This document shows, one piece after another, positions 11,101-61,807 of a stretch of DNA of 64,000 bases (its first letter is position 1; every line of letters starts with the position of its first letter). Origin of the DNA: Leptospiraceae bacterium (lineage in GTDB: Bacteria; Spirochaetota; Leptospiria; Leptospirales; Leptonemataceae); assembly GCA_040217195.1 (NCBI GenBank), contig JAVJNR010000009.1, positions 96,001 to 160,000 on the forward strand. Direction: 5' to 3'. The notes beneath the pieces were generated by a model that did no database searches, had not been told where the DNA came from, and worked only from the letters and a program-made list of their open reading frames with translations. The translations under genes and the position numbers were made by a program.

Positions 11101-14100
11101 TTGCAATGGGTATACCATTTACCGCTTTCGGTTGGAGATAAGGTCATCGGTATTGCAACCATAGGCGGTCGTTACCAGCGGCGAATACCTCCCTCAGACA
11201 AAGCCTTGATTGGGCGAATGATTGCCCAGGTGGCTGGCGCCGTGCAACAGCAAAGTCTGTTACAGACCATTGAAGAAGAAAAGGATTCCGCCAACAAGCT
11301 GGAACAGGAAACCAGGGCTCTTGCCGAATTCACCCGGCTTCTAAATGAAAGACAGGACCTGGATTCTGTAGTAAAAGAGGTATGTCGATTTGCCGTAGAG
11401 GCCCTGGATCTTCGTGGAACCTTTATTACTGTAATCAACGAAAAAGAACGAGAATTCCAAAATATTGGAGGGTTTGGCCGCGATTACAACGACCAGCAAT
11501 TGCTATTTGCCACTGGTTCCCGGGCGCCTCTGAATCCGGATGCTGGCACCTATTATCGTACCTACGAACGCAAGAAACCTCTGTATTTTCGCCGTCTGCC
11601 GCAACTGGATAATCCCACCGACCGCTACGTAGTGGAACTGTTGGAGCTAAAAAGCTACGCCCATGTACCTTTGATTTTGCAGGGTAATGTTATCGGCATC
11701 ATGGGGGTCGATCCAGGACAGCGAAAGCTCAAACGGGAGGACCTGAATCGACTGCAAAGATATGCCGACCAGGTCACCGGGGCCATCAACAATGCAGCGC
11801 TGCTAAAACAGGTTCAGCAGCAAAGATTCAGTATCGAAGGCATGGCCAAAATCACAGAAGTGGCCGCTTCAACAGATAACCTGGACGAAATCATCGATCA
11901 GATCTTTGACTATGTGCGACAGAGGTATGGCATATTATCTGGCATTGTCATGCTTCCAGATGACAAACATGCGAATCTAAGAACCTATCGGGTCGTTACA
12001 TTCGAAGACAAAGATAAGCTACAACTACATGAAGTTGGCCGATACTCGGAGAACCTTTCTATTCCCATCAATGACCGTGGTGGTACGCTGGCCCGCACAT
12101 TTCGGCGAGGTCGTCCGTTCTACGTACCCGACGCCTCTCGTATACAAAACGTTAAGCGAAACTATCCAGGGGCAGAGACCGACCGGGAGATCTTCAGCAA
12201 TCTTCGCTACAAGGGGTATCTGGCCCTTCCCATGTCAGTAAACAATGAACCTGTAGCGCTTTTAAACTTCACCTCCTACGGCGGTGAATTGCGATTGAGC
12301 AAATCGGACAGGGAAGAACTGGGCACCCTGGCAGATCAACTGGCCGGCATCATTCGATCCAGGCAACTTGCAGACAGACTCGCTATAGAAAAGAAGCGGG
12401 CAGAGCAGGAGAAAAAGGTGAATGAGGCGCTGGCCAATCTGGCCAGGCAGGCTAACGAAGGCGCTGGCATAGAAGACATTTTAACGCAGACTTCCCGATA
12501 TGTACAATCGGAGTGCGGCGTTTCCAGACTGGGGCTCTATATCGTTAATCACGAAAGAAATACCCTGGAATTGCACTCTATTCTGGAATCTGCACAGTTG
12601 CAAAATCTGGAAGAGGCGCCGGAAATAATCAAGACCATACCGATCGAATTTGAGAGCGGAAGCCTGGCAACCGTAGTCCGCAGAAATAGAAAGTTTTTCA
12701 TGCCGTACATGAAACAACAGTTTCTCGAAGCATCTCACGTTGATAAAGCTCATGTGGAATTCCACAAGTTTGACTGGGCATTGCAGGCCCCACTGAACAC
12801 AAGCGGCTCGATTATTGGAATACTTGTATTCGTGGGGCCGCATTCAACCCGTCCAGGTCTTCGCGAAAGACAACTGATGGAACGAATCGTTGATCAGATT
12901 GCTGGCGCCGTGCAAAGCAAGCAGCTATTGGATCAGGTCCGGGAAGCGCGAAAGGATAGCGAAGCGCTGGCCGAACTGGCCCGTCGTGCAGATGAAGGGG
13001 CCGATCTAACAGAAATTGGAGAACTGGTATTACACTATGCCCGGGAAAGATGCGGGGTGGATACGATGGGCCTCTATACCGTAGATCGAGAGCACCATCG
13101 AATGGAAGCTCATGCTATTGCGCGCAAGGGCGTCATAGAGCCGGTAAGAGCGGTACCGGAAGAACTACGGTTTCCTCCTCTCGCCGAAGAAACCGGTAGT
13201 CTCAGCCAGGTTGTGGCACGGGGGAAACCTCTATATATGGGAAGGCTTCCGGGCCGGGTGAAGATCCGAATGAGCGACCATGACCGAAAGAATCTGGAGT
13301 TCATGGGATTCGACTGGTTTCTGGATATTCCAATGATAGCTCAAGAAGAAGTGATTGGAGTGATCGCTTTTGCCGGCCCTGCCAGGCAAAAACTCTCGAA
13401 GAGCGAAAGAAGTTTTCTGGAGCGAATCACCGTGCAGGTCGCGGGCTCCGTACAGAATCGACAGCTTTTGAAGCAGGTGGAATCAGAACGAAACGTAGCT
13501 CGCACTCTTCAAAAGGAAACGGAAGGACTGAACCAGCTTCTGAAGCGAATAGCGGCCATGGAAGACCTGGAAGCAATCATGGATGAGGTAATCGCATTTT
13601 CCGAAGAAGCCTACGGCATAGGCATTTATTCCCTGTATTCTGTGGACAACGCAACCAAGCAGATGCAAGCGCTGGCTATGAACTTCCCGGATCATATTGC
13701 GCCCGAAGATCGACAGTATATCATGGACACTCCGGTTCCCCTGGATTTTCGCGGCGGGGCCTTTACCACCGCCTATCGGCGTAGTCCCCGCTACACATAC
13801 TTCAAGAATGCGAAATCGGAAGGTACATCGCCCATAGAGCAGTTTGTCACCGAGACGTACAATCTAACAAACATGGTGGTGTATCCGCTCATGGAAGGCG
13901 ACCAGGTAATGGCCTTTCTGAACTTTCTGACATACACTGAGGAAGGGTTGAATCGAGATCAGTTAAGTCAGCTATCCATTCTCAGCGATCAGATCTCTGG
14001 CATCATTCGAATGAATGGATTGATTCGTCAGGTAAAAGAGCAAAGCGCCCGAACCGAAGCCGCCAGGCAGGAAGTAGAGGCCCTGGCACGTATCACCCGA

Positions 14101-17161: not shown

Positions 17162-17291
17162 TTTTCTTCGACTACATGCTGGATTCGGTTGCCAGTCTTT
17201 CGAAAATAAGGGATTGATGGCAATAAATGTTAGAAGTGGCAAATGGGCCGCTTTTAATCGGGGCCCATACGATACCAGGACAGTAGAGCCG

Positions 17292-20200
17292 ATGGAGACA
17301 ATTAGCCAGAAATACAGCAGGTCTGGAAACACAAAGGGAACCGGGTTTCAGCTCGCAGATTTGCTGCTAGCAAGTATACTGTTCTGGCTGCCAAAAAGAA
17401 TAGTCAGTTTATTGGCCGGAATTCCAGCCCGGCTCCGTCTTTTCTTTCCAGTGCGATCCTTTATGTCAGCCGCGATTCCGGGGCCCCTTTTTCTTATAGC
17501 CTTGTTCTCAATGGTCGCTATTGGTTGCTTTCAATCAGCCCGGCCCGGCCCACCGGTTGCCCGGGATGGAGTTCTGGATCTACGACAATGGGATTTCGAA
17601 AGCAATGGATCGGCCAATTTGAGCGGAGATTGGAAACTTGTATGGGGCCAGTTCGCCTCTCCAAACAGTCCATTGAGAAACGCCTATGACGCGCGTGTTC
17701 CCCGTAGCTGGGATCACCTCGGAATCGAAGGCGTTAGCGGCCGCGGCTTCGGAACATTGCAGCTTGTTCTTCAAGGCCTACCGGAGACGACCTCCGGCCT
17801 GACCATTTCCCTCCCTTCCATGACCGGTGCCTACCGGCTTTATTGTGGAGAATCGTTGATTGCTGCCACCGGCACGGCCGGCAACTCCTATGAGACAACG
17901 ACCCCTGAACGCATTCCTCGTGTGGCCATCCTTCCAACGGAATGCATTAAGGAAAATCAGGCTGTACTCACATGGCATGTTGCAAACTTCCGGCATCGAA
18001 CCGGTGGAGGTGCGGCCGAGCTAACTTCCACGATGACAATCGGGCTACCCGCTCAAACCATGAGTTCCGTGTATCGGAGACATCTGGCCGATCTTTCCCT
18101 GCTTGCCATCGCATTCATTATGGCCCTCTACCATCTGGTCTACTGGCTGTTTCGCCGCGATGACGTCCAGTTGGTCCTTTTTTCGGCCGTGGCCGCTCTA
18201 TTCTGCGTTCGAATTACTGGAACGCAAACGCTTTTGCAACAGGCCTTTCCCTCCGCCGATTTTTACGAAATTGAATTCATGCTGGAATACCTGGGCTACT
18301 ATTTGCTCGTGCCGGTTTTCTTTTCCTATCTACGAGCATGGTACCCGGGCGAGTTCAATCGATTTGTATCGTACACGCTCTGGATCATCGGAGGGCTTTT
18401 TTCAGCCACCGTTCTTTTTGGTCCGGTAGATTTCTATAGCAATTACATTCGCTATTATGAAAGCGTCAGCCTGGCTGCCTTTCTTTACACCCTGATCGCG
18501 CTTGGTTTTGCCATTGTTCGAAAACGTCGCGGTGCCTGGATCCTAAACGCCGGCGTCTGGATTATAATCGGAACCGCAACGCATGACATCCTGGGCAATA
18601 TGGGTGTGCTTCAGTCCGAAACCTATCTGGCGCAGTTTGGCTTTCTTACATTTCTGTTATCTCAGTCTTCTCTGATGGCAGCTCTTTTCTCGGACGCCTT
18701 TCGTCGCGCCGAGGATCTTTCAGAGAATCTGGAAAAAAAGGTCGTCTCCCGGACAGGGGAACTGGCCCGTGAAAAGGATCGCGCAGAGACAGCGCGAGCG
18801 ACCGCACTTGCGGAGCAGTTGGAATCGGAGATTCTGGCGGATCTGGCCCAACAGGCCAACCGTGGTACAGATGCAAAAAGCCTGCTGGACCCTCTGGCCA
18901 GGGTTTTGACTGCACGCCTTGGAGCGGACCGCCTGGGACTCTGGGTTGCCCGGGATGACGGGTATCTTGAACTGGTGGCCGGTTTTGCGGATGGCCAACC
19001 AACGGATCCGAAGCAATATTCCGACGTTGTGGCTCGAATCAGTACCGGCGAAAAAGGAGGTATTCTGGCACGCGGCTATCGAGAAGGCCGAATCATCTAT
19101 GTTCCTCGAGTAAACCGCAAGCTTCTGGAGAATTCGCCTGTGGACCGGGAAATCCAATCCACCTGGAAGTTTGACTGGTTCGTTAATCTACCGCTGGTTG
19201 TGGACCGGGGCTCGGTGGGAATGATTGCCGCTTCCGGTCCCAGAGCAAAAAGAATTCCCCGAAAGGAAATCCGATTTCTGGAACGAGCGGCGGCCACCGT
19301 GGCCAGCGCTACCCAGAAACAAATGCTTCTGGAGCGAATCGAAGAAGAAAAGGATGCAGCGAAAAAACTGGAGCGCGAAACCAGGGCTCTGGCCGAGTTT
19401 ACGCGACGACTTAACGAAAGGCAGGACCTGAACTCCATTGTATCAGAGGTTTGTCAATACTCAGTAAATTCCATGGCTCTGCGAGGAGCCTACGTAACCG
19501 TAATCAATGAGAAGGAAAGGGAATTTCAAAGCATTGGAGGGTATGGCCTGGATTACAATGATCAGCAAATGGCCTTCGTGCGTTCCTCCCGCGTACCTCT
19601 TAGCCAGGAATCCGGATTGATCTATTCCACGTATCGAAGAAAGAAAAATGTGCACCTTCGTAGATTACGTCAATCCTCAAGTCCGGTGGATGAATATGCC
19701 CGGGAAATACTGCAGCTAAATTCTATTGCACACTTCCCTCTGCTTCTGGAAGGAAATGTAATCGGTGTTCTCGCAGTGGATCCGGGGCGGCGAAAATTAA
19801 GCCAGAAGGACCTGGGTAAGCTGCAGAATTATGCCGACCAGGTAACAGGAGCCATTAACAATGCCGCTTTGCTGCAACAGGTTCAGCAGCAGAGGATGAG
19901 CATTGAAGGTCTGGCAAGAATTACCGAGACTGCCGCCTCTACAGATAACCTGGACGAAATCCTGAATCAGATCTTTCACTATGTGCATTCTCGTTTTGGG
20001 ATTTTGTCAGGGCTTGTAATGGTTCCCAACGAAGACCGCACCGAGCTTCAAAGCATTAAGGTACATACATTCGAAGATAAAGAGTCCCTGCAACTGGCTG
20101 CTGCTGGCGAATACGCAGAAGGTCTATCGGTAGCAATTAACTTACAGGGAGGCACTCTTGCGCGAACCTTTCTACGTGGCAGGCCTTTCTACGTACCGGA

Positions 20201-23200
20201 CGTTTCGCGGTTCATGGAAACGGGGCGAAATTACCCCGGCTCCGAGATTGACCGGGACATCTTTCAAAATCTTCGCTACAAGGGATATCTGGCCCTTCCC
20301 ATGACCGTTAACAAAGAGCCCGTAGCGTTGCTCAATTTCACCTCCTATGGAGCAGATCTACGATTAAGCAGGGCAGACCGGGAAGAACTGGGCACTCTTG
20401 CCGATCAGCTGGCAGGCATCATCCGATCCAGGCAGCTGGCCGAGAACCTGTCCAGAGAGAAAAAGCGGGCCGAGCAGGAGAAAGCAGAGAACGAGGTTCT
20501 GGCAAATCTGGCCCGGCGCGCCAACGAAGGCGCTGGCATAGAAGACATACTGATCGAGACTTCCCGAATCACGGAGGCTCACTGCGGTGTATCCAGACTG
20601 GGTCTTTACCTGGTCGATACGGAGAAAAACACGCTTGAGTTGCATTCATTCCTATCGTCGGGCGAAGTGAACGATGAACGGCCGGTACCGGATATTATCA
20701 AATCCATACCCATAGAATTCGAAAGCGGAAGTCTGGCCGCTGTAGTACAGCGAATGCGAAAGATGTTTCTTCCCTCCATCAGGCCTCCGTTTCTGGAGGC
20801 TTCGCCCGTAGATGCCGCTCAAGTAGAGTTTCACAAATTTGATTGGTTTCTTCAAGCACCGTTGATGACCGGAGGTTCCATGATCGGCGTATTGGCCTTT
20901 GTAGGTTCACAGGATCATCGCCCTGGCCTGCGCCAAAGACAGCTGATGGGTCGCATCGTAGATCAGATTGCAGGTGCCGTTCAGAGCAAGCAACTTCTGG
21001 ATCAGGTGGAGGACGCACGAAGAGACAGCGAGGCGCTGGCAGAACTGGCCCGCCGTGCAGATGCAGGCGCCGATCTTTTTGAAATTGGAGAACTGGTACT
21101 GGATTATGCGCGGGCAAAGTGCGGAGTAGATACTCTGGGTCTATACACCGTCAACCGGGAGCTCAATCGACTGGAAGTACAGGCCTTCGCGCGAAAAGGT
21201 CCGATTGAGCCGGGAAGCGTGCTGCCCGATGAACTGCGCTTTCCTCCACTGTTTGAGCAGACCGGTTCCCTGAGTCAGGTCGTATCCCGAGGCAGGCCTC
21301 TTTATATGGACCGACTGCCGGAACGACTGAAACGAAAAATGAGCGACCATGACCGAAAGAACCTGGAGTTCATGCAATTTGACTGGTTTCTGGATATTCC
21401 AATGATTGCTCAAGAAGAGGTAATTGGAGTCATTGCTTTTGCCGGCCCCGCCAGGCAGAAGCTTTCAGAAAGCGAAAGAAATTTTCTGGAACGGATCACA
21501 GTACAGGTGTCCGGTTCTGTAAAGAACCGACAGCTCTTGAAGCAGGTAGAATCGGAGCGAAACGTAGCTCGCACTCTACAGAAAGAAACAGAAGGTCTGA
21601 ATCAATTACTCAAGCGCATCGCGCCGATGGAAGACCTGGAAGAAATCATGGAGGAGGTTATGGCATTCTCAAAGGATGCATATGACATAGGTGTTTATTC
21701 CCTGTATTCCGTGGACAATGAAAGAAAGCAGATGCAAGCACTTGCCATGAACTTCCCTGATCATATAGGACCAGAAGACCGGCAATACATTATGGAGACT
21801 CCGGTTCCGCTGGATTTTCGCGGAGGGGCCTTTACCATAGCCTATCGTCGCAGCCCGCGATACACTTATTTTAAAAATGCGAAGCAAGAAGGCACATCAC
21901 CAATTGAAGAATTTGTCAGCAAGAAGTACGACTTAACGAACATGGTGGTCTATCCGCTTATGGAAGGCGACCAGGTAATGGTTTTCCTGAATTTTTTAAC
22001 CTACAATAAAGAAGGCCTGAACAGGGATCAGCTGAGTCAACTCTCCATTTTGAGCGATCAGATCTCAGGAATTATCAGGATGAACGGATTGATCCGCGAA
22101 GTGAAAGAGCAGAGCGTGCGCACAGAAGCCGCGAGAAAGGAAACCGATATGCTGGCCGAACTCTCCAGGAAGGCCAACGAAGCAACAGACCTGGAAGCTG
22201 TGAGCCAGACACTCTTTGACCATCTTCGCGAGTCCCTTGAACTGGACGACTTCTGTTTGTTTGTCCTGGAGCCCGAAACCAGGTTGCTGCATGCGGCAGC
22301 CTGGGACACATCCGCCGCCGAGGATCCGGAAACCAGGCGATGGCTGGAAACCACGCACCATAAACTGGAACCGGATGTGGGAACCCTTTACCGCACCTAT
22401 TCAAAAAAGAAAACAACCTATCTGCCTCGTTTTCCGGAAGCATTTTTTGCACCCGGAGATCGGATCATTGTAGAAAAACTAAAACTAACCTCAGCTCTTC
22501 AAGTACCTCTACTCATCCAGGATGAGGTTATTGGGTTCCTTACCTCCGGCCCCCGCCGGCGATTGACCAGGGAGGAGATCACTTCGGTGGAACGATTCTG
22601 CAACCAGGTGGCCGGCGCCATTCGCGCAACAGCTTTGCTCAACAGCACAGCGCAGGCGCGGCAGCGGGCCGAGAATGCCAGGCGTGAAACCGAAGCCCTG
22701 GCCGTTCTTTCCAGAGAAGCAAACGAAACCGTAAACCTGGAGAATCTTTCACAAACCGTTTTTCATCTAATGCGTCAGACTCTGGATCTGGAAAATTTCA
22801 CTTTATTCATCGTGGACGATCAGGACAGCGAGCTTCTTCCAGCAAAATGGGATACAGTGCAGGATGTCAGTGAATGGAAACGGAACTTTCGCGTACCACT
22901 ACAACCCGACGCGGGAACGCTGCATCGGACGTGGAGTCGTAAACGTACCCTCTATTTGCCCGCATTTCCGGAAGAATTCGGGGGATGGGCGGACCAGGAA
23001 ATCGTCGGGAATTTGAAGATTGAATCCGTACTGCAAATCCCGCTGGTGGTATCCGACCGAGTCGTAGGCATCTTCGCATGTGGTCCTACCAGGAAACTGA
23101 ATCGTGAGGAAATTCGATCCGCAGAGCGTTATATTCAACAGATTGCCGGCGCAGTAAGGATCATTGCTCTGCTCCAGGCCACCCAGGAGGCCCGAGAAGA

Positions 23201-24182
23201 AGCTGAGGTGGCCAAAGAGGAGGCAGAAGTAGCCCGGGCCGAGTCCGATGCTTTGCTGGAGAATGTGCTGCCCAGCGTAACCGCAAAAGAGCTAAAAGAG
23301 TCCGGCCGAGTGGAACCTGTGTACTTTGACAACGTTTCCGTGATGTTCACAGACTTTGTAGGATTCACAAAGGCAGCGGCCCGGCTGACTCCTGCCGAGC
23401 TTATCCAGGAGCTGGATGGTTGCTTTTCGCAATTCGATGAGGTATCCCGCCGAAACAATCTGGAAAAGCTAAAGACCATTGGTGATGCCTATATGTGCGC
23501 GGGAGGCCTGCCGGTGCCCAACGAAGGTCATGCTATCGATGCCTGCTTGACCGCCCTTGAATTTCGCAGCTTCATGAATCAGATGGCAGCAGTAAAAGGA
23601 CAGCTGGGCTATGAATTCTGGCAGATTCGCATTGGCATACACAGCGGGCCGGTTACGGCCGGCGTCATTGGCCAGAACAAGTTCTCCTACGATATCTGGG
23701 GCGATACGGTAAACGTGGCCAGCCGCATGGAATCCTCGGGCAGCCCGGGAATGGTTAATATTTCAGGTGCCACCTACGAACTCGTCAAAGATCTATTCCA
23801 ATGCGAATATCGAGGCAAAGTTCAGGCCAAGGGAAAGGGCGAACTGGACATGTACTTTGTGCATAGAATCAAGCCGGAACTTTCTGCAGATGAGGGAGGA
23901 CTGCTTCCCAATGCCATGTTTGAGCTTGCACGGACGGATATGGACATGGACGAAATCAATGCCATGAAATCAGAAATCCATGAGAATCATGCCGCCTCCA
24001 GGTATCCAGATAAATCGGAACCTGATACAGGGTCCACACAGGCACAGAATAATACCTCCACTGGTAAGTCGAAAGCCTCAAGCGGCGACCAAAAAGCCGA
24101 TCGGCGCGCCGGGTCGGAAAGAAGAAAACATGCGGGGGCCCGACCACTGTCCGAACTGGACAAAGAAAGACAGGGCTGGTAA
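17292..24182 (+). CDS. Giant 7TM-DISM / 8xGAF / class III adenylate cyclase
   Basis: Close paralog of 8191-16713 with a lipobox-like VAIGC. Start is uncertain (17214, 17292 or 17463). Confidence 0.9.
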   Translation: METISQKYSRSGNTKGTGFQLADLLLASILFWLPKRIVSLLAGIPARLRLFFPVRSFMSAAIPGPLFLIALFSMVAIGCFQSARPGPPVARDGVLDLRQWDFESNGSANLSGDWKLVWGQFASPNSPLRNAYDARVPRSWDHLGIEGVSGRGFGTLQLVLQGLPETTSGLTISLPSMTGAYRLYCGESLIAATGTAGNSYETTTPERIPRVAILPTECIKENQAVLTWHVANFRHRTGGGAAELTSTMTIGLPAQTMSSVYRRHLADLSLLAIAFIMALYHLVYWLFRRDDVQLVLFSAVAALFCVRITGTQTLLQQAFPSADFYEIEFMLEYLGYYLLVPVFFSYLRAWYPGEFNRFVSYTLWIIGGLFSATVLFGPVDFYSNYIRYYESVSLAAFLYTLIALGFAIVRKRRGAWILNAGVWIIIGTATHDILGNMGVLQSETYLAQFGFLTFLLSQSSLMAALFSDAFRRAEDLSENLEKKVVSRTGELAREKDRAETARATALAEQLESEILADLAQQANRGTDAKSLLDPLARVLTARLGADRLGLWVARDDGYLELVAGFADGQPTDPKQYSDVVARISTGEKGGILARGYREGRIIYVPRVNRKLLENSPVDREIQSTWKFDWFVNLPLVVDRGSVGMIAASGPRAKRIPRKEIRFLERAAATVASATQKQMLLERIEEEKDAAKKLERETRALAEFTRRLNERQDLNSIVSEVCQYSVNSMALRGAYVTVINEKEREFQSIGGYGLDYNDQQMAFVRSSRVPLSQESGLIYSTYRRKKNVHLRRLRQSSSPVDEYAREILQLNSIAHFPLLLEGNVIGVLAVDPGRRKLSQKDLGKLQNYADQVTGAINNAALLQQVQQQRMSIEGLARITETAASTDNLDEILNQIFHYVHSRFGILSGLVMVPNEDRTELQSIKVHTFEDKESLQLAAAGEYAEGLSVAINLQGGTLARTFLRGRPFYVPDVSRFMETGRNYPGSEIDRDIFQNLRYKGYLALPMTVNKEPVALLNFTSYGADLRLSRADREELGTLADQLAGIIRSRQLAENLSREKKRAEQEKAENEVLANLARRANEGAGIEDILIETSRITEAHCGVSRLGLYLVDTEKNTLELHSFLSSGEVNDERPVPDIIKSIPIEFESGSLAAVVQRMRKMFLPSIRPPFLEASPVDAAQVEFHKFDWFLQAPLMTGGSMIGVLAFVGSQDHRPGLRQRQLMGRIVDQIAGAVQSKQLLDQVEDARRDSEALAELARRADAGADLFEIGELVLDYARAKCGVDTLGLYTVNRELNRLEVQAFARKGPIEPGSVLPDELRFPPLFEQTGSLSQVVSRGRPLYMDRLPERLKRKMSDHDRKNLEFMQFDWFLDIPMIAQEEVIGVIAFAGPARQKLSESERNFLERITVQVSGSVKNRQLLKQVESERNVARTLQKETEGLNQLLKRIAPMEDLEEIMEEVMAFSKDAYDIGVYSLYSVDNERKQMQALAMNFPDHIGPEDRQYIMETPVPLDFRGGAFTIAYRRSPRYTYFKNAKQEGTSPIEEFVSKKYDLTNMVVYPLMEGDQVMVFLNFLTYNKEGLNRDQLSQLSILSDQISGIIRMNGLIREVKEQSVRTEAARKETDMLAELSRKANEATDLEAVSQTLFDHLRESLELDDFCLFVLEPETRLLHAAAWDTSAAEDPETRRWLETTHHKLEPDVGTLYRTYSKKKTTYLPRFPEAFFAPGDRIIVEKLKLTSALQVPLLIQDEVIGFLTSGPRRRLTREEITSVERFCNQVAGAIRATALLNSTAQARQRAENARRETEALAVLSREANETVNLENLSQTVFHLMRQTLDLENFTLFIVDDQDSELLPAKWDTVQDVSEWKRNFRVPLQPDAGTLHRTWSRKRTLYLPAFPEEFGGWADQEIVGNLKIESVLQIPLVVSDRVVGIFACGPTRKLNREEIRSAERYIQQIAGAVRIIALLQATQEAREEAEVAKEEAEVARAESDALLENVLPSVTAKELKESGRVEPVYFDNVSVMFTDFVGFTKAAARLTPAELIQELDGCFSQFDEVSRRNNLEKLKTIGDAYMCAGGLPVPNEGHAIDACLTALEFRSFMNQMAAVKGQLGYEFWQIRIGIHSGPVTAGVIGQNKFSYDIWGDTVNVASRMESSGSPGMVNISGATYELVKDLFQCEYRGKVQAKGKGELDMYFVHRIKPELSADEGGLLPNAMFELARTDMDMDEINAMKSEIHENHAASRYPDKSEPDTGSTQAQNNTSTGKSKASSGDQKADRRAGSERRKHAGARPLSELDKERQGW

Positions 24183-25423: not shown

Positions 25424-28400
25424 ATGAGCTTTGAATCCGAGATCAGCCCGGACGAGGATTCCGCCGTTTGCGTCAACCAGCTGCGGCAGCAACTGGCTCG
25501 CAAGGAAAGAGAGTTCCAGGTGATCCATGAGCTTTCGTCTGAAATCAATACTACGCTGGATCCGGATCGAATCTTCAAGGTTTCCATGGATGGCCTGGAC
25601 CAGGCTTTCGATTTTCACCATTCTCTGATTCTGCTAACTGATGAAGCCGGTAAGAATCTGGAAGTTGTGGCCAGCCATGGTTATCCGGACCCGGGCCTGG
25701 GAGCCACACTGCCGGTGGGCATGGGCGTCATTGGTGTTGCCGCAAAAAGAAAGAAGCTACTGAGATCGGTGGCGATAACCTACCAATCCCTGTATGCTCG
25801 GATGACCATGATGGGAAAGGCAGACCAGGTGAAGAACCGGAGTCCCATGCCCGGGCTGGAAAATGCGGCCAGTCAGATGGCCATTCCACTCATTGTACAG
25901 GATGCTTTGATCGGAATCTATGCGGTGGAAAGCCCGGCGGTGGGGGCCTTTGATTCTCTGGATGAGCAACTTCTTTCCATCATCGGAAGCATGGTGGGTG
26001 CCGCCATAGCAAATGCAAGAACCTATCGGGACGTGGAGGATTTAAGCAGAAACCTGGAACAAAAGGTTCAGCGCCGCACAGAAGAGCTCAATTCTCTAAA
26101 TACACTTACGCGTACAGTAAACCGAAGTCATCAGCTAGAAACGATAGTCCGGGACACAGCGCAATACATGGTAAGACATCTGGCCGTGCGAAAGATGTTT
26201 CTCTTTCTGTTGAACTCTGAAGAAAATGAAATTCGGGGAATGGCAGGCTATTTAGAGACTCTCAGTGATGAACAGCAAGACCTACTAAAAAACTTTCGAG
26301 CCCGGGTGGAGCCAGAGCTGGGCACGTTGTACCGTACTATTCAGCGAAAAAGGACCGTGTACCTGGATCTCACTCGAATCAAGCAGGCCCGCTCTGCAGC
26401 AGACCGGTTTGTTATAGAACAAATTGGACTGAGCAGCGTCATCCAGATTCCTGTTATGGTGAGCGGCCGCGTTCTGGGAGTGGCCTGTATGGATCCTGGC
26501 GGGTTTCGCATGGATCGTGCCGCACTGCGCAAACTGGAATCCGTGGTAGCCCAGATTGCAGGCGCTGCAGACAACGCCTATCTTCTGGAACAGGTAAGCG
26601 CACAGAAACAGGATGCCTTACGAGAACGGGCGGATAGTGAAATTCTGGCAGAAGTGGCCCGCAGAGCAAACGAGGCCCGCAGCAGCGAGGAAATCCTGCA
26701 ATTGATGGCCGAACATGTACTCGGACATTGTGCTGTGAACACCATATCCCTGCGATTGGTAGATCCCACCGGCGAACTGTTGGAAACTCATTCTGTGATA
26801 GAAGACGGCATCCGAACCAGCCTGGACGATTTGCCCGCAGAAATCCGGTCTATACCGCTAAAATATGAAAGCGGAAGTCTGTACCAGGTCTTTTCCAGGA
26901 ATCGCAAGATGTATCTGCCTCGCATCCGGCCCTCCTTTGTGCAGAATTCCCCGGTGGATCAGACCATTCATGCCCATCACGGATTTGAGTGGTTTTTGAA
27001 CGTTCCTCTGTCAATCCAGGGCAGTGTCATCGGCATTTTCAGTTTCGCTGGCAAGAAAGCAAACCTGCCGGACTTTAGAGCGCGATTATTAATGGAACGA
27101 ATGGTTGCACAGGTGGCCGGAGCTGTTCATAGCAAGCAGCTACTGCTGCAGGTTCAGGAAGAAAGAAACATTGCCACACGACTCCAGGAAGAGACAGAAG
27201 GCCTCAATCAATTGCTCAAGCGAATCGCCAGCATTGAAGATATCCAGGAATTGATGAATGTAGTCCAGAAGTATGTTGCGAAGGCATACGATATCCATTA
27301 CTACTCTCTCTACTCCATGGACCCGGAAAACCAACAGGTAGTGCCGACCGCGCTGAACATTCCCGAATGGATTTCAGGAGATGACCTGGAGCATATTCGC
27401 ACGACTCCCGTGCCACTAAATGTTCGATTTGGAGCTCTAAGCGTGGCCTACCGCAGAGTCCCGAATTACACATACTACAGGTCTCTTCGCCCATCCATTG
27501 CTTCCGACATTGAACGATTCATTATCGAAAAATACAGGATGAACAATCTGGTGGTCTACCCATTGATGAATAACAATGAGCCCATCGCTTTCCTGAATTT
27601 TATGACTCACACTGAGGGAGGGCTCAATCGGGAACAACTGAATCAACTCTCTATTTTGAGCGATCAGATCTCCGGCATTATTCGGATGAATGGACTACTT
27701 CGCGAAATAAAAGAAGAAGGGCGAAAGACCGAACAGGCCCGGGCCGAAACCCAGGCTCTGGCCACTCTTTCAAGGCATGCCAACGAAAGCACAAACCTGG
27801 AAAGTATTTGCCACGCTCTTTTTACCTATCTGGAAGATACCCTCAGTCTTACGAACTTCTGTCTATTTATGGTGGATCAGCCCCGGTCCGAGATCTATGT
27901 CGTTGCAGGTGCCGGCGCTGGGTGGTCCACTCACATTCAGGAGTGGACCCGGGATCTGAGAATTAAGTTGGAACCAGAATCCGGCACCCTTTATAGCACG
28001 TATAGTAGGCAAAAACCCATGTACCTTCGGCGAATTCCTGGAAACATGGATTCAGCTGTGGATCTGACCATAGTAGAAAAATTCAATCTTGATTCTATAT
28101 TGCAGGTGCCTCTGGTCATCCAGGGAAATACCATCGGAATACTGGCCTGCGAACCATCCCGAAGGCTCCGCCCGGAAGATATTCAATCCGTTGAACGATT
28201 TTGTAATCAGATCGCAGGCGCCATGCGAACCATGGCTTTGCTTCAGATCACCCAGGAGGCCCGGGAAGAAGCCGTGGTGGCCAAAGAGGAAGCGGAGCAG
28301 GCCCGGGCCGAATCCGATGCACTCCTGGACAATGTGCTTCCGGCTGCTGCAGCAAGAGAACTCAAAGAAACCGGCCGAGTCGAACCCATATACTTTGACT

Positions 28401-29269
28401 CCGTTTCAGTGCTTTTCACAGACTTCGTAGGATTCACCAGGGCGGCCGCCAACCTGACACCTGCCGAACTGATCCAGGAACTGGATGGTTGCTTTTCTCA
28501 GTTCGACGAAGTAAGTCGCAGAAACAACCTGGAAAAACTGAAAACAATCGGCGATGCCTATATGTGTGCAGGCGGTCTCCCGGAACCCGGTAATTCCCAT
28601 CCTGTGGACATCTGCCTGGCTGCACTTGAGCTACGAGCGTTCATGCAGCAAATGGCAGAAGTGAAGCAACAACTGGGATTTCAATTCTGGCAGATTAGAA
28701 TCGGAATTCATACTGGCCCGGTTACCGCCGGCATTATTGGACAGAATAAATTTGCATACGATATCTGGGGAGATACCGTCAACGTAGCCAGCAGAATGGA
28801 GTCCTCCGGAAGTCCCGGTATGATCAACATCTCTGGATCCACGTATTCGCTGGTCAAAAATCTGTTCGAATGCGAACACCGGGGCAAAGTAGAGGCAAAA
28901 GGTAAAGGCGAAATGGATATGTATTTTCTGCATCGTATCAAGCCCGAACTTTCTGCCGATGAAGAAGGATTGCTACCAAATGCAATGTTTGAAATGGCTC
29001 GCACCGATCTGGATAGAGATGAGATCCATTCGCTCAAGCAGGGTCCCTCAGAGACTCCCGGATTTCGATCTTCTGAAAGTTACAGCGAAGGGGCTACCGA
29101 TGAGATAGCTCATTCAGCCACAAATTGCGGGTTTCAGACCTCTTTGAATCAGTCTGATAACAGCGTAGAGAGTGGACAGTGTATTTCGGACAGAAAGCAA
29201 TCCATCCGAAAAAAGCCAGCAGGAGCCCGGCCGCTATCCGAGATCGATGCGGACCGCGAGGGCTGGTAA
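25424..29269 (+). CDS. Soluble 5xGAF class III adenylate cyclase
   Basis: No TM segments, five GAF modules, cyclase motifs KLKTIGDAYM and YDIWGDTVNVASRMES. Confidence 0.9.
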   Translation: MSFESEISPDEDSAVCVNQLRQQLARKEREFQVIHELSSEINTTLDPDRIFKVSMDGLDQAFDFHHSLILLTDEAGKNLEVVASHGYPDPGLGATLPVGMGVIGVAAKRKKLLRSVAITYQSLYARMTMMGKADQVKNRSPMPGLENAASQMAIPLIVQDALIGIYAVESPAVGAFDSLDEQLLSIIGSMVGAAIANARTYRDVEDLSRNLEQKVQRRTEELNSLNTLTRTVNRSHQLETIVRDTAQYMVRHLAVRKMFLFLLNSEENEIRGMAGYLETLSDEQQDLLKNFRARVEPELGTLYRTIQRKRTVYLDLTRIKQARSAADRFVIEQIGLSSVIQIPVMVSGRVLGVACMDPGGFRMDRAALRKLESVVAQIAGAADNAYLLEQVSAQKQDALRERADSEILAEVARRANEARSSEEILQLMAEHVLGHCAVNTISLRLVDPTGELLETHSVIEDGIRTSLDDLPAEIRSIPLKYESGSLYQVFSRNRKMYLPRIRPSFVQNSPVDQTIHAHHGFEWFLNVPLSIQGSVIGIFSFAGKKANLPDFRARLLMERMVAQVAGAVHSKQLLLQVQEERNIATRLQEETEGLNQLLKRIASIEDIQELMNVVQKYVAKAYDIHYYSLYSMDPENQQVVPTALNIPEWISGDDLEHIRTTPVPLNVRFGALSVAYRRVPNYTYYRSLRPSIASDIERFIIEKYRMNNLVVYPLMNNNEPIAFLNFMTHTEGGLNREQLNQLSILSDQISGIIRMNGLLREIKEEGRKTEQARAETQALATLSRHANESTNLESICHALFTYLEDTLSLTNFCLFMVDQPRSEIYVVAGAGAGWSTHIQEWTRDLRIKLEPESGTLYSTYSRQKPMYLRRIPGNMDSAVDLTIVEKFNLDSILQVPLVIQGNTIGILACEPSRRLRPEDIQSVERFCNQIAGAMRTMALLQITQEAREEAVVAKEEAEQARAESDALLDNVLPAAAARELKETGRVEPIYFDSVSVLFTDFVGFTRAAANLTPAELIQELDGCFSQFDEVSRRNNLEKLKTIGDAYMCAGGLPEPGNSHPVDICLAALELRAFMQQMAEVKQQLGFQFWQIRIGIHTGPVTAGIIGQNKFAYDIWGDTVNVASRMESSGSPGMINISGSTYSLVKNLFECEHRGKVEAKGKGEMDMYFLHRIKPELSADEEGLLPNAMFEMARTDLDRDEIHSLKQGPSETPGFRSSESYSEGATDEIAHSATNCGFQTSLNQSDNSVESGQCISDRKQSIRKKPAGARPLSEIDADREGW

Positions 29270-53953: not shown

Positions 53954-54343
53954 CTAATCTTCCATAAAGGCAGCGTGAAACCGAAACTCCATTCTGGCCC
54001 CTATAGCTCCGGCAAGAAGTAGATAGCGACTATCCAGTTCAAAATAAGCTTCTGTTTCATCGCCTGCATCCATAACACAGGAGACTCGAACTTCATGGTC
54101 TCGGGCCAATTGCCTTAAACTTCGCCGCACAGGAGAAAGTCTGCGCAGTAAATCCTTAACATGCTCTTCAATAGGCTCATTGCCTGCGGGTCTGCTATTG
54201 ATCTGCCAGATTCCTCTTCCCCAGGCATCCCGGGGAATAATTCGGTCCGGTTCCACACCCAGGATTCTACTTACATCCTCTGGATGAAGGTCCGAGCCTG
54301 AAATGGTAAGAATAGCCCAGCCTGTAGTTACTCTGTTTGACAT
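53954..54343 (-). CDS. DUF4279-like protein
   Basis: LTISG.DLHPEDVSRILGVEP...W. Start taken at ATG 54343. Confidence 0.65.
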   Translation of the reverse strand: MSNRVTTGWAILTISGSDLHPEDVSRILGVEPDRIIPRDAWGRGIWQINSRPAGNEPIEEHVKDLLRRLSPVRRSLRQLARDHEVRVSCVMDAGDETEAYFELDSRYLLLAGAIGARMEFRFHAAFMED

Positions 54344-54394
54344 CTTATGGAATTCCTGTAACCGTGGAATCAACTTCTCGAATCCACACTGCCC

Positions 54395-55771
54395 ATGAAA
54401 GAACCAGTACTGGTAATTATCGGTAATGGCATAACCGGAATCACGGTTGCCAGAACTGTCCGCAAACAATTCAGGGATATCCGCATTCGTATTATATCGG
54501 ATGAGACGGACTACTTCTTTTCCCGTCCTGCCTTAATGTATATCTATATGGGTCATATGGAAGCTAAACATACTGAGCCCTATGAGCGGAATTTCTACGA
54601 TGAAAATCGTCTGGAGTTGATCCGTGGCCGTGTAGAATCCATGGATCCGGATTCCGGAAATCTGACCCTGACTGGCGGTCAGCAGGTACCCTTTGACTAC
54701 GTTGTGATGGCCACAGGCTCAGTGCCCAATCGCTTTGGCTGGCCCGGCCAGGATCTGGACGGTGTTCAAGGTCTCTATTCCATGCAAGACCTGGATAGCC
54801 TGGAATACTGGACAAAAGAAGGGATTCACAATGCAGTTATAGTAGGTGGAGGATTGATTGGTATAGAACTGGCGGAGATGCTACATACCCGAGGGATCCC
54901 GGCAACCTTTCTAGTGAGGGAAAGTCATTACTGGGGGAACATCCTGCCCGTTGAAGAATCCAATCTGGTCAAACAGCAAATCGATGCCCATCATGTTGGG
55001 TTAAAGCTAAATACAGAGCTGAAATCCATTGAATCCGATTCAAATGGCAGAGCCAGCGCCGTCATCACTTCGGATGGAGAGAGCATACCAGCCAACTTCG
55101 TAGGACTTACGGCTGGTGTTAGACCCAACATTTCTGTTTCGCATCCTTCTGTGGAAACGGCACGCGGCTATTTAATCGATTATTCATTTCAGACCAGCCA
55201 TAATAAGGTATTCGCGGCAGGCGATTGCGCCCAGTTTCGCACAAATGAAGGCGCCGGCCCGGTGGAGCAACTATGGTACACCGGGCGGATGCAAGGAGAA
55301 GCTCTGGGTTCCATTCTGGGATACAGGATTAAGGAGGAGCATTCCTTAACGTTGCGGGATGATATCCCGGTTGCGGATCAGGTATTTCCGGAAAACACCC
55401 CTTACGATCGGGGAATCTGGTTTAATTCAGCCAAGTTCTTTAACCTGGAATATCAGACCTACGGATATGTGCCTGCCAGACTTGATTCGGAGCAAACCTT
55501 TTACTGGCAGCATCCGAAAAAGAGTATCGCCTTTCGCATGGTATGGCAGGGAAATCCGGAATCTGGTCAGGTTACCGGATTCAATGTATTCGGATTGCGC
55601 TACAGACAGAATGTATGCCAGCAATGGATTGCGGATGGCCGAAGCCCCCGCCATGTAATCGATCATCTCAAGGAGGCCAATTTCGATCCAGAGTTCTTCG
55701 AAAAACCGGAGAAGCAAATACGAAAAGCCTTCAAAGAATTTGTCCGCAAGGCCCCGGCAGTCACGGGATGA
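54395..55771 (+). CDS. NAD(P)/FAD-dependent oxidoreductase (pyridine nucleotide-disulfide family)
   Basis: IIGNGITG, ATGS.P, VGGGLIGIELAE, FAAGDCA. Confidence 0.9.
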   Translation: MKEPVLVIIGNGITGITVARTVRKQFRDIRIRIISDETDYFFSRPALMYIYMGHMEAKHTEPYERNFYDENRLELIRGRVESMDPDSGNLTLTGGQQVPFDYVVMATGSVPNRFGWPGQDLDGVQGLYSMQDLDSLEYWTKEGIHNAVIVGGGLIGIELAEMLHTRGIPATFLVRESHYWGNILPVEESNLVKQQIDAHHVGLKLNTELKSIESDSNGRASAVITSDGESIPANFVGLTAGVRPNISVSHPSVETARGYLIDYSFQTSHNKVFAAGDCAQFRTNEGAGPVEQLWYTGRMQGEALGSILGYRIKEEHSLTLRDDIPVADQVFPENTPYDRGIWFNSAKFFNLEYQTYGYVPARLDSEQTFYWQHPKKSIAFRMVWQGNPESGQVTGFNVFGLRYRQNVCQQWIADGRSPRHVIDHLKEANFDPEFFEKPEKQIRKAFKEFVRKAPAVTG

Positions 55772-56290
55772 TCACAAGGTCCAAAGGACCGCAAGATTCA
55801 TTACGGGAGCACTGTTACACGAGATAGCAAGGCGAGCGAGATTCTGGCCGCTCCAAAGAGCGGGCCAGAAAGCGATCAGGACGATCGCCAGGTCCGAAGG
55901 ACCGCAAACAATTTCGTGGGAGGCGCAATGCACGAGGCATTGCGACGAGCACAACTAGATCGCAGAGTGCGTAGCACTCGCCGCGGGCAGGATGTCCGCA
56001 AGGCCCGAAGGGCCGCATAAACTTTCACGGGAGCACTGCTACATGAGGTAGCAAGGCGAGCGAGATTCTGGCCGCTCCAAAGAGCGGGCCAGAAAGCGAT
56101 CAGGACGATCGCCAGGTCCGAAGGACCGCAATAATTCTCGTGGGAGGCGCAATGCACGAGGCATTGCGACGAGCACAACTAGATCACAGAGTGCGTAGCA
56201 CTCTGCGCGGACAGGATGTCCGCAAGGCCTGAAGGGCCGCACAAATTTTCACGGGAAGCGCATTACAGGACGTAATGCGCTGAGCGTACC
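55764..56290 (+). repeat. Tandem array of five ~112-bp multi-hairpin units (224-bp higher-order period)
   Basis: C(A/G)GGA(C/T)G at 55764, 55877, 55988, 56101 and 56212, each followed by a GG(T/C)CCGAAGG(A/G)CC-type hairpin. Confidence 0.92.
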
Positions 56291-56293
56291 TAT

Positions 56294-57643
56294 ATGAACG
56301 ATTCAGTACCTTTTAAAATATTTCAACCCTATAACCTCATGGCCAGTTTGCTGATAGCAATCAGCCTGGCTGTTCCGGTGCTGGGCCTGGCCGGGTTGCC
56401 CGTAGCCCGGGGCGGGCTCTATCTGGTATTATTTCCGGGACTACTCTGTCTTGGCTTCTTTATGATGGCCGCTCAGCGTGCGCTTTCCCGACCGGCTGGA
56501 ATAGACAACCATGGCATTTACCATAGCAGCGTCACTGGCCGAGGGCTGGCAGGCATTTTGCTTGGAATTGTAATTACGGGTCTCTACGTTGTAATCTATT
56601 TTGGAGACCGAATCAGCCTGGGAGACAGCACTCTGCATAGTTTCTTTCAGGAAAGATTGTACAGCCATTTCGATGCCATTAGCCAGGCCTTACGCGGCCA
56701 ACCCGCCGATAATTGGTTCTTCTACAGTCTAATGTACACTCTAGCTGTATTCGTATTCGGAGTACGGATGATCCTGAAGCACAGGCATTCTCCCTACCAG
56801 ATCATTCGCACCATATCTGTAGTCATTGTTCAAACCGGATTTGGATTTCTCATCCCGTATCTCCTGGTGGCGCTTCAAAAGCCGGAGTTCTATTTCAGCT
56901 ACTTCTGGCCTTTGAAGCCCGAGTACCTCTATCCTGGTAAATGGCCGGACCTGGCATCGGGAGCACTCACCACTTTCTTTACCGGAGAAGCTGAACTGTT
57001 CACCTACTTTCTGGCCTTTGGCGCCTTTATGACCTTTGTGGCTACACCTGTGCTCACATATTTCTTTGGAAAGCGCTGGTATTGCTCCTGGGTTTGCGGA
57101 TGCGGAGGACTGGCAAACACTGCAGGTGATCCGTTTCGTCAGCTAAGCGACAAAAGCCTAAAAGCCTGGAAGATCGAACGATGGACCATCCACTCGGTTC
57201 TCGTGGCCATAGTCCTGATTACCGGAGTCCTCTGGCTGAATTCCATAACCGAAGGCAGGTTCTTGCCGGGATGGGGAGCTTCCCTTCAGCAAGCATATAC
57301 ATTCTACATTGGCTTAATATTCAGTGGAGTGGTTGGCGTGGGGTTCTATCCACTCCTGGGAACCAGGGTCTGGTGCCGATTCGGCTGTCCCATGGCTGCC
57401 ATCCTGGGAATCATTCAGAAGTTCTTTTCCAGATTTCGCATTACCACCAATGGAGGGCAATGTATCTCCTGTGGCAACTGCTCCACCTATTGCGAAATGG
57501 GCATCGATGTGCGATGGTATGCGCAGCGCGGCCAGAATGTGGTACGAGCATCCTGTGTGGGATGTGGCCTGTGTTCGGCAGTATGCCCGAGAGGTGTACT
57601 CAATCTGGAGAACGGAATTGTTACTGCAAGAGTGCCTTCCTGA
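56294..57643 (+). CDS. Membrane-bound 4Fe-4S binding protein
   Basis: Multiple TMs, RWYCSWVCGCG, RVWCRFGCP, CISCGNCSTYC, CVGCGLCSAVCP. Confidence 0.9.
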   Translation: MNDSVPFKIFQPYNLMASLLIAISLAVPVLGLAGLPVARGGLYLVLFPGLLCLGFFMMAAQRALSRPAGIDNHGIYHSSVTGRGLAGILLGIVITGLYVVIYFGDRISLGDSTLHSFFQERLYSHFDAISQALRGQPADNWFFYSLMYTLAVFVFGVRMILKHRHSPYQIIRTISVVIVQTGFGFLIPYLLVALQKPEFYFSYFWPLKPEYLYPGKWPDLASGALTTFFTGEAELFTYFLAFGAFMTFVATPVLTYFFGKRWYCSWVCGCGGLANTAGDPFRQLSDKSLKAWKIERWTIHSVLVAIVLITGVLWLNSITEGRFLPGWGASLQQAYTFYIGLIFSGVVGVGFYPLLGTRVWCRFGCPMAAILGIIQKFFSRFRITTNGGQCISCGNCSTYCEMGIDVRWYAQRGQNVVRASCVGCGLCSAVCPRGVLNLENGIVTARVPS

Positions 57644-59466: not shown

Positions 59467-60633
59467 CTAGTCCACGACCAGGCGGGGAATTCCGGGCTCT
59501 ATGCGAGTGACGATTTCATAGTTGATCGTGCCTGCCAGATCGGCCAGTTCATCTGCTGTCACTGTCTCCGAACCATCCTGTCCGATCAAAGTGGCAACGT
59601 CACCCACTGCGCATCCAGGAATGGAGGTCACATCCACCATAATCATATTCATACATACCCGGCCCAGAAGTGGCGCCCGACGGCCACGAATCAAGACATG
59701 AGAACGATTGGAAAGGCTGCGATCATATCCTTCATAGTACCCAACCGGCAGCACTGCGATGGTGGTGGGCGCCGTGGTACGATGGGTGCAGCCATACCCC
59801 ACATCCACGCCTTCCCCCACTCGATTGATGTGCACGATACGAGTTCTCCAGGATAGAGCCGGTCGAAATTCTGGCATTTCTGCAAATATGGTACGAGCGC
59901 TAAGTCTGGTGGAACTGGAAGGCCAGAAACCATACAGTGAAATGCCCACTCGAATCCAGTCCTGACGGGATTCAGGCAAAATCAGGGCCGGTGCGCTGGC
60001 TGCACTGTGACAGATCAGTTCACCCGAAAAACCAGATTGCTGAAAAATGGCCCGGGCCCTTTCCATGGCAGCTGCAAATCTGGAGTATTGTAACCTGCCA
60101 TAGCCCTGGTCCATCACATCCTCGACGTTGGCAAAATGAGTCATTAATCCACGCCAGGGAAGTTCCGGGGTCTCAGACAGGTATTGAAATAGTTCATCCA
60201 GATAGGCATCGTGAGCGCCCAGGCGGCTCATTCCGGTATCGACCTTGATGTGGAATGGCAGATTCGGTCTACGAGCCTGGAGCGCCCGAACATCGTCCAC
60301 CGTGGAAAGCACGATATGGAACTGGTCTTCGGATTCAGGAATCTCTGAGTACTGTTGATCATCGTTACGACCCATGATCAACACAGGACCTGAGAATCCC
60401 AGATTTCGTAACTGAAGTCCTTCGAAAATGGCATTTACAGCCAATCCCCGCACATCTCCTCTCTCATAGAGAGGTAGCAAAATCTCAACCATCTGCTGTA
60501 GGCCGTGACCATAACCATTGGATTTGATAACAGCGTAGAAATCGCTATCGGGAGCGGCCGCTCTGTAGTTCAAGACGGACTGCTCAATGGAGCTTCTGCT
60601 GATCTCCAGCCAGGTATTCATAGGGCCAGCCAA
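59467..60633 (-). CDS. alr: Alanine racemase
   Basis: AVIKSNGYGHG, HIKVDTGMSRLG, VGYG, GRVCM. Confidence 0.95.
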   Translation of the reverse strand: MAGPMNTWLEISRSSIEQSVLNYRAAAPDSDFYAVIKSNGYGHGLQQMVEILLPLYERGDVRGLAVNAIFEGLQLRNLGFSGPVLIMGRNDDQQYSEIPESEDQFHIVLSTVDDVRALQARRPNLPFHIKVDTGMSRLGAHDAYLDELFQYLSETPELPWRGLMTHFANVEDVMDQGYGRLQYSRFAAAMERARAIFQQSGFSGELICHSAASAPALILPESRQDWIRVGISLYGFWPSSSTRLSARTIFAEMPEFRPALSWRTRIVHINRVGEGVDVGYGCTHRTTAPTTIAVLPVGYYEGYDRSLSNRSHVLIRGRRAPLLGRVCMNMIMVDVTSIPGCAVGDVATLIGQDGSETVTADELADLAGTINYEIVTRIEPGIPRLVVD

Positions 60634-60697: not shown

Positions 60698-61027
60698 TTT
60701 CTGGCCTCCCCGCGGGCCAGAAATCGATCAGGACGATCGCCAGGTCCGAAGGACCGCAATATTTGCTACGGGAGCAATGCACGAGGCATCGCGACGAGCA
60801 CAGCTGAAAAAGAACGCGGAGCGTTCTTGGTGATCAGGATGATCACAGGGTCCGAAGGACCGCAATATTTGCTACGGGAGCAATGCTGCACGAGGTAGTA
60901 TTGCGAGCGAGATTCTGGCCGCTCGGGAGAGCGGGCCAGAAAGCGATCAGGACGATCGCCAGGTCCGAAGGACCGCAAAATTTACTACGGGAGCAATGCG
61001 ACACGAGGTAGTATTGCGAGCGTACCT
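60698..61027 (+). repeat. Second array of the multi-hairpin unit (three copies)
   Basis: CAGGA(C/T)G at 60729, 60835 and 60948, GGTCCGAAGGACC x3. Ends in GAGCGTACCT, as does the first array. Confidence 0.92.
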
Positions 61028-61174
61028 CTAAAGGAGCCGGACAGTGAAGAAGCTGAAGACCAGACTATCCGTTCGAAAGCGACTGCAAAAGAAACGTGAA
61101 GCAAGAGCGCTGCGCAGCAAGGCCAAACAGGCCCATCGCCGAGGCACTGGATACAAAGACCTGGAAGATGCTGA

Positions 61175-61807
61175 GTGATGAAGCCTATTGCAGGCCTTCC
61201 ACTTCGCAATCATTTCATCCCCGCAGAACGAAGAGACTCCGCATTGCTGGTCATTATGCATGGCCTGGGCGATCGTATGGAGTCTTTTTTCGATTTCCCG
61301 GAAATGCTTCTGGGAAGCAAGATCTCCTATCTATTTCTAAACGCTCCTGATCCTTACGTGGTAGGCTGGAAGTGGTACGATCTGGATGGCCAGCAAGAGA
61401 CTGGCCTGAAAAACTCCAGGAGCCTATTAGACCAAACCCTCCAATACTTACGAAAGCACCAGGGCATTGCACCGGAGAGTATAGTGCTTTCTGGATTCAG
61501 CCAGGGCGCTGTTGTCAGCCTTTACACAGGGATTCGGAGTGAATTGCCACTTGCAGGTATTGGAGCTCTGTCAGGTTATCTGTTCGGCGGCGTGGACGAT
61601 GCCACAGAGGCAAGCAAGGAAACGCCCATCTTCATGACCCATGGATTATACGATGAAGTGCTACCCTATGAGCGATCCGAAGGTCATGGCCAGTTGCTTT
61701 CGGAGGCCGGTTACAAACTGGACTGGAGGGAGTATCCCATGGGGCATCAGATTTGCCAGGAAGAAATGCAGGATTTCGCACACTGGTTGAGCGCTATTGC
61801 TGGCTGA
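61175..61807 (+). CDS. Phospholipase/carboxylesterase (alpha/beta hydrolase)
   Basis: MHGLGD, GFSQG, HG.YD.VLP, MGHQI. Confidence 0.92.
   Translation: MMKPIAGLPLRNHFIPAERRDSALLVIMHGLGDRMESFFDFPEMLLGSKISYLFLNAPDPYVVGWKWYDLDGQQETGLKNSRSLLDQTLQYLRKHQGIAPESIVLSGFSQGAVVSLYTGIRSELPLAGIGALSGYLFGGVDDATEASKETPIFMTHGLYDEVLPYERSEGHGQLLSEAGYKLDWREYPMGHQICQEEMQDFAHWLSAIAG

Follow-up and report, generated by a model that had tools for sequence, protein, structure and literature searches.

The two tandem arrays in the window (the whole 64,000-nucleotide stretch that was analysed, i.e., contig C8:96001-160000 of the 4.6-Mb genome G000) are probably members of a genus-level, non-autonomous mosaic repeat family of the REP/BIME kind, read by its structure in single-stranded DNA. 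The repeat is apparently undescribed: no published account of the family was found in the literature searched, which had few subscription papers, and the Rfam search proposed with the original prediction gave no real match, whether at the gathering score or by E-value with limits of E = 5 and E = 1. That prediction had offered an RNA scaffold such as a CsrA sponge as one reading and a non-autonomous REP/BIME-like element as a second; it is the second that the spread of the family, its filled and empty sites, and an intragenic copy bear out.

Array 1 holds five units (55.76-56.29 kb), and a second array of three units (60.7-61.0 kb) is also present, at 60712-61028 (Table 1). The short hairpins of array 1 start at 55778, 55891, 56002, 56115, and 56226, reproducing the predicted spacing of 113, 111, 113, and 111; the two alternating subtypes proposed correspond to a 224-bp doublet of 94% identity, and both the hairpin order and the GGA/GAG internal loop can be read in the sequence. 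The array does overlap the oxidoreductase TGA (55769-55771) and ends 3 bp before the ATG at 56294. Unit 1 is degenerate, as its 5' arm is gone and AAA replaces GAA; it scores 52 bits with model R1, versus 86-97 bits for the others. The description "CsrB-like CAGGA(C/U)G loops" fits half of array 1: among its ten pentaloop positions, five read CAGGANG, whereas two are CACGAGG, one is CATGAGG, and two are degenerate. Folding of the array is far more stable than that of shuffled sequences on both strands (z = -9.75 on the + strand and -8.30 on the - strand; 0/100 shuffles were as good). The only RNA evidence was one 118-nt contig of related sequence in one library, which is uninformative on expression, and no RNA run was shown to hold the array stretch. 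The closest named relative of the membrane polyferredoxin, 91% identical, is labelled Leptonemataceae.

Table 1. Features in and around the two arrays (window positions).
Feature	Position	Strand	Basis and remarks
FAD/NAD(P)H oxidoreductase gene, 458 aa	54395..55771	+	ORF; Pyr_redox_2 E=1e-42; TGA within degenerate unit 1
Unit 1 core, degenerate 5' unit	55756..55844	+	model R1, 51.9 bits
D hairpin ahead of unit 2 core	~55842-55870	+	fold
Unit 2 core: A hairpin (AGGAC loop), B hairpin (GAA triloop), C stem (GGA/GAG internal loop, ACGAG loop)	55871..55957	+	96.5 bits; fold
Unit 3 core, AGGAT and ATGAG loops	55982..56068	+	86.4 bits
Unit 4 core, copy of unit 2 (224-bp doublet)	56095..56181	+	96.4 bits
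Unit 5 core, terminal; ends at family 3' junction CT(C/A)TA right before ATG	56206..56292	+	94.9 bits
Membrane polyferredoxin gene, 449 aa	56294..57643	+	ORF, domain match; in other bacteria usually tightly coupled to flavoprotein gene
Alanine racemase gene, divergent from array 2	59467..60633	-	ORF, domain match
Array 2, three units; cores 60723-60806, 60829-60915, 60942-61028	60712..61028	+	model R1
44-aa very basic ORF with own good SD, directly 3' of array 2	61044..61178	+	start conserved in four congeners; no Pfam match
Carboxylesterase-type gene	61175..61807	+	ORF, domain match

Elsewhere in the window, very large multi-GAF adenylate/guanylate cyclase genes are clustered (4-2055, 8113-16713, 17214-24182, and 25424-29269); they encode up to 2866 aa (two were scanned), and their 3' parts are paralogous. 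Contig C8 also carries a second ParB (202038-202310) and thus may be the small chromosome; C8, at 5% of the genome, holds four of the 13 G000 arrays (p = 0.003, post hoc).

Each family unit spans ~105-113 nt and sets its hairpins in a fixed geometry. A variable hairpin capped by GNA comes first, followed by a 6-bp stem closing an A(G/C)GAN pentaloop and a 5-bp stem closing a GNA triloop; the last stem, of 3+10 bp, is interrupted by the GGA/GAG internal loop and ends in another A(G/C)GAN loop. The two sides of the internal loop are kept in 86 and 85 of 139 units. Model R1 was built on 32 units (30 of the 32 distinct units collected, plus two from the window added by hand), in which 91.9% of alignment cells are paired and 167 have changed on both sides, with 0/500 shuffles as high; for 139 distinct units, the values are 92.1% and 862 cells, figures that are not probabilities because the units are related to one another and were aligned by fitting them to the model. 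Such heavy covariation nevertheless upholds the original claim that structure is kept while the stems change.

R1 detected 31 matches in G000 (E<=0.1) and was matched in nine of 42 genomes of the taxonomic family, including all six congeners (2-44 matches each); in addition, there was one strong match, beside the tmRNA gene in another genus, and one weak match. Grouping the units by flanking genes gave 19 loci, and those genes are functionally unrelated (e.g., arginyl transferase, a DinB protein, a sodium symporter, lipase, citrate synthase, and acyl-CoA dehydrogenase). Weak matches in four of 150 other genomes of the phylum have the loop vocabulary in common but a different architecture; with only 29 candidates scored in each genome, this search may have overlooked weak copies. 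Specific-pattern searches returned 23 genome stretches, 22 of them spirochaetal (labelled Leptonemataceae, Leptospiraceae, or Spirochaetaceae), and metagenome matches that added little new context; these patterns had no match in viral contigs or plasmids. A 16-nt pattern scan of genome contigs was set aside, the single scattered matches among those listed looking like chance.

Hairpins with similar loops were encountered in other settings. Intergenic hairpins of other spirochaetes (L325, L326, L327, and L329) have the same CAGGATG loops in different architectures. A second, ~150-nt tandem repeat family combines the same pentaloop with hexaloop hairpins and has a constant end; its copies lie next to tRNA genes and surround a VapBC-like pair (G000:C7:195-1700, C2:499900-500150, and C1:1048000-1048200; L151, L148, and L147). 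A tRNA array with a group II intron (L428, G024:C1:4553000-4562000) carries a constant two-hairpin GGA-loop motif between its tRNA genes, TwoAYGGAY-like but without an Rfam hit.

Insertion was visible at an intragenic site. One unit of genome G004 lies inside an Rpn (Transposase_31) gene, where it adds an in-frame stop, and is absent from the genus's other five Rpn copies; the filled and empty alleles have a CT-rich junction in common, and no target duplication is visible there. Three more arrays of G004 lie in spacers that are array-free in G000, and comparison of orthologous sites for presence or absence gives four G004 sites that are empty in G000. Array 1 itself places 522 nt between genes whose gap elsewhere is -4 to +39 nt in 44 of the 73 measurable loci (83 flavoprotein-polyferredoxin loci were examined). 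The family as a whole consists of dispersed, multi-copy, mainly intergenic palindromes in clusters. Its 3' end is sharp, reading CT(C/A)TA in 34 of 45 arrays in which an end motif was found (60 were examined), and the 11 exceptions include some false picks within flanking genes; this end abuts a same-strand start codon or SD, or else a convergent gene's stop. On the 5' side the boundaries are ragged, and arrays grow by local duplication. At nine of 13 G000 loci, the element strand has negative GC skew, but there is no clear replication-strand rule. Of 53 rows from a loose pattern, 14 have a second small module directly 3' of an intact pentaloop; many of the remaining rows are chance matches or stand-alone copies, some inside HINT-domain ORFs. 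Small hairpin modules, one per strand, occur within pretoxin HINT-domain ORFs (G000:C1:3245-3600 and C1:43888-44100; L430, L437, and L447).

We infer that a nuclease or transposase cuts at the hairpins and joins the strand at CT(C/A)TA; such a target would explain why arrays end at start codons or SDs on one strand and at TAG stops on the other. Once inserted, the arrays would persist for long periods with their fold kept, and effects on mRNA, including CsrA binding to GGA-bearing copies, would be secondary.

The search for such an enzyme, which covered the adjacent RAYT/TnpA or reverse transcriptase gene named among the checks of the original prediction, found no mobiliser. The Y1 transposase domain (PF01797) was found in none of seven genomes (58-94% complete), with the control matching in 6/14; Y2_Tnp was likewise found in none of the seven, but its control was also silent. 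A reverse transcriptase is encoded in one of the seven genomes, not in G000; it has no repeat beside it, and none was seen beside any array examined. None of 12 GIY-YIG loci had a family pentaloop hairpin within 1.5 kb. The 42 ORFs at nested-module loci include a single nuclease, an Rpn; a group II intron reverse transcriptase lies more than 1.5 kb away, in another genus. Five of the six Rpn loci of the genus contain at least two hairpins of the family vocabulary or a nested module within the 3.6-kb locus, compared with 2% and 0.5% of random G000 windows and three of 25 Rpn loci in other genera. G004, with the most units (44 matches), carries four Rpn genes, but none is seen in four congeners that have arrays, one of those genomes being 94% complete. 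Rpn nucleases are a loose lead as the mobiliser, and their loci lie in variable DNA where repeats may simply collect. Rpn genes with their own upstream short repeats around a palindromic core were also noted (L448-L452 and L324), the one in L451 being bracketed by an ~80-nt direct repeat that starts with a degenerate copy of the nested module.

The folds look suited to single-stranded DNA more than to RNA. The triloop hairpin reads C(GNA)G in 113 of 139 units (GAA 62, GTA 28, GGA 12, and GCA 11), with ANA in 14, and the variable hairpin, present in 84 of 130 units examined, has 43 GNA and eight ANA loops, one GNRA, and no UNCG. In the accessible text of PMC13037366, only GNA triloops form an extra-stable DNA mini-hairpin, and the RNA counterparts tested are much weaker. 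G-T pairs are scarce (79/2910, 2.7%) relative to G000 tRNA stems (~61/791, ~7.7%, taken from ARAGORN drawings). In sense (coding-strand) copies, G-T and A-C are level at 56 and 49; in other contexts they number 22 and 4, and overall, G-T leads by 79 to 53 (p = 0.03). Antisense units, which make up 15 of 137 and comprise two loci and two units inverted inside one array, are paired as well as sense units (304/334 versus 2031/2289 Watson-Crick cells).

After insertion, arrays are mostly inherited in place. The nearest neighbour of a unit outside its own array was at the same locus of another genome for 41 of 97 units (the top 100 rows, duplicates dropped), where 6.5 would be expected. Orthologous terminal units share 70% identity, and their stem differences comprise 445 compensated and 223 uncompensated pairs, so the fold has been maintained in place, unlike that of a dead insertion; this upkeep could come either from host use or from local renewal. 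With arrays mostly inherited in place and the fold kept, host use is possible. The leading alternative is a once-mobile element that has been domesticated within mRNA, where its RNA fold, placed next to a gene start or intergenically, would control stability or translation through a protein that accepts A(G/C)GAN. Besides conservation of the fold in place, it has in its favour that the unit next to the gene start is the best paired in sense arrays (24 versus 3, of 27), as against 2 versus 3, of 7, in other arrays, five loci with fragmentary, duplicate, or mixed arrays having been left out. Orientation is sense at 10 of 12 co-directional loci (p ~0.04, by hand); a 13:2 count of sense to antisense was discarded because divergent spacers are uninformative. 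The lack of any consensus promoter- or terminator-like site in 54200-56400 fits co-transcription. However, RNA-type loops are absent and wobble pairs few, antisense units are equally well paired, one locus may hold anything from 1 to 6 units, and the target genes are unrelated; domestication is judged unlikely, and it ranks ahead of the CsrA sponge. The preferred reading of a single-stranded DNA repeat has its own difficulties: no mobiliser was found, most loci are old and common to the genomes, and the upkeep of the fold in place, the well-kept terminal unit, the sense bias, the overall lead of G-T over A-C, and the GGA loops of 107 of 137 units all count against it.

A second alternative is that the GGA pentaloops titrate CsrA or, as a CsrA-operated leader, block translation. 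CsrA is indeed encoded, as the original prediction assumed, csrA adjoining fliW in a flgL-fliW-csrA cluster (with flgL-like genes). According to the available part of PMC8668096, Leptospira biflexa CsrA binds a very similar GGA hairpin and requires the GGA; AGGAX pentaloops bind Csr/Rsm proteins less well than ANGGAX hexaloops do in the portion of PMC4005645 seen, and Csr/Rsm binding has been proposed, without proof, for TwoAYGGAY and Bacillaceae-1 (PMC4333381, accessible sections). At least one GGA loop is kept in 107 of 137 units, and CsrA may plausibly bind any transcribed copies with GGA. However, position 2 of 188 A-x-G-A-N loops is G in 130, C in 56, T in 2, and A in 0; a transversion is thus common where the transition is absent, and C is specifically allowed. 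Against 130 AGGAN loops, there are 58 other pentaloops, and about 30% of all loops are ACGAN without GGA. AGGA and ACGA loops are mixed at 12 of 19 loci, terminal units next to start codons show no excess of GGA (28/36 versus 43/56, p = 1), and six units have ACGA in both loops, when ~5.5 would be expected under independence (by hand). Flagellin leaders of the genus, in comparison, keep GGA in 23 of 23 cases, 18 as a hexaloop, although this is a weak control because they represent four paralogues and the GGA overlaps the SD. Taken with the DNA-type triloops, few wobbles, and antisense and intragenic copies, this makes a non-coding RNA or CsrA sponge improbable as the main explanation.

Slightly less probable still is a recombination platform, in which single-stranded hairpins would serve as attC-style sites for uptake or exchange of gene cassettes. 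A 3.6-kb cassette does begin at the 3' end of the array before moxR in G000 and G004 and is missing in G002, the region being 97.6% identical over 3797 nt with flanks of 69-79%, and in G002 and G005, though not in G004, the acyl-CoA dehydrogenase array is followed by ~2.3 kb of additional genes. Such cases amount to at most three of the 19 loci, however, the cassettes are not individually bounded by units, and any repeat promotes such events. The attC core is GTTRRRY, and an attC-like reading was rejected as the array end has no such core. The cassette itself consists of small lipoprotein-like genes (G000:C10:419900-423500 and L296) and, being 97.6% identical between two species otherwise ~79% identical, reflects a recent transfer. 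Neutral relics, with stems kept perfect by template-switch repair of palindromes and no selection on structure, would account for near-absent wobbles and level G-T and A-C counts in sense copies, as expected from strand-symmetric repair, but are very improbable: loop sequences, stem lengths, and the unpaired GGA/GAG loop, which lie beyond what such repair can preserve, are all kept while units diverge to 60-70% identity.

The best reading is a BIME-like mosaic acting at the single-stranded DNA level with a loop vocabulary common to TwoAYGGAY and Bacillaceae-1. IS200/IS605 and IS91 elements have a sharp boundary on one side, at a short target that is not duplicated, together with a subterminal hairpin and a ragged far end. 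These features resemble those of the family, but no cognate transposase and no gene-carrying element were found; the terminal inverted repeats and target duplication of a MITE are not seen either, as the 5' ends are ragged and the filled and empty Rpn site shows no duplication. With REP/BIME/REPIN elements and their RAYTs, as described in the accessible parts of PMC6006769 and PMC3733652, the family has in common dispersed intergenic hairpins, tandem mosaics, occasional inverted or intragenic copies, lineage specificity, and a fold of the single-stranded DNA type. It differs in that the foot of the hairpin bears neither a GT[AG]G tag (unit alignment, both strands) nor CGTC, that seven genomes show no Y1 transposase, and that its four-hairpin unit is mostly head-to-tail and present in only tens of copies.

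TwoAYGGAY (RF01731) and Bacillaceae-1 (RF01690) also have two GGA-type loops per unit and a G-A rich internal loop (PMC2864571 and PMC4333381, in part), and they vary in copy number and behave as if mobile according to the visible text of bioRxiv 10.64898/2026.09.22.753630; that text leaves a link between mobility and regulation open for TwoAYGGAY, and its supplements may cover more lineages. The present family, however, has no Rfam match even below threshold, its pentaloop is A(G/C)GAN rather than AYGGAY, and its hairpins stand in series with GNA triloops and no common basal stem, head-to-tail rather than as divergent doublets. Hexaloop modules related to the AYGGAY type do occur elsewhere in these genomes. 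CsrB/RsmZ RNAs likewise carry several CAGGA(U/C/A)G hairpin loops in series, but the family does not look like a single gene with promoter and terminator, 30% of its loops are without GGA, and it has long perfect stems, many loci, and antisense copies. The ncRNA arrays of UG27 reverse transcriptases resemble it in their structure-conserved, sequence-diverse units and a main hairpin with a conserved internal loop (same preprint, accessible text); here, no reverse transcriptase is present in G000 or beside the arrays examined, motifs and unit length are different, and the neighbours are housekeeping genes rather than prophage.

The tandem copies are thus real and belong to a small four-hairpin repeat that, within one group of relatives of marine spirochaetes, has entered spacers between genes of unrelated function. 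If it is only another REP-like family, its value is modest: a well-defined annotation model for one uncultured genus. The proposal that GGA-loop repeats are CsrA sponges dates from 2014-15, and the interest of the family lies mainly in its ACGAN variant, which makes the open question of CsrA versus mobility testable. We would tentatively entertain, while still regarding it as doubtful, that the many bacterial A(N)GGAN-loop repeats now taken for CsrA sponges (TwoAYGGAY, Bacillaceae-1, and look-alikes) are recognition hairpins of a structure-specific single-stranded DNA mobiliser that is neither RAYT nor Ssn and is possibly of the Rpn family, with the arrays of the present family doubling as hot spots of gene uptake. 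The CT(C/A)TA end supplies a defined junction sequence for tracing that missing mobiliser. Since the loop tolerates exactly G or C where CsrA needs G, the family is a natural experiment between the CsrA and mobiliser readings, and the A(G/C)GAN rule, GNA triloops, antisense copies, and clean filled/empty site together provide a sharp and cheap test of RNA and CsrA versus single-stranded DNA and a nuclease.
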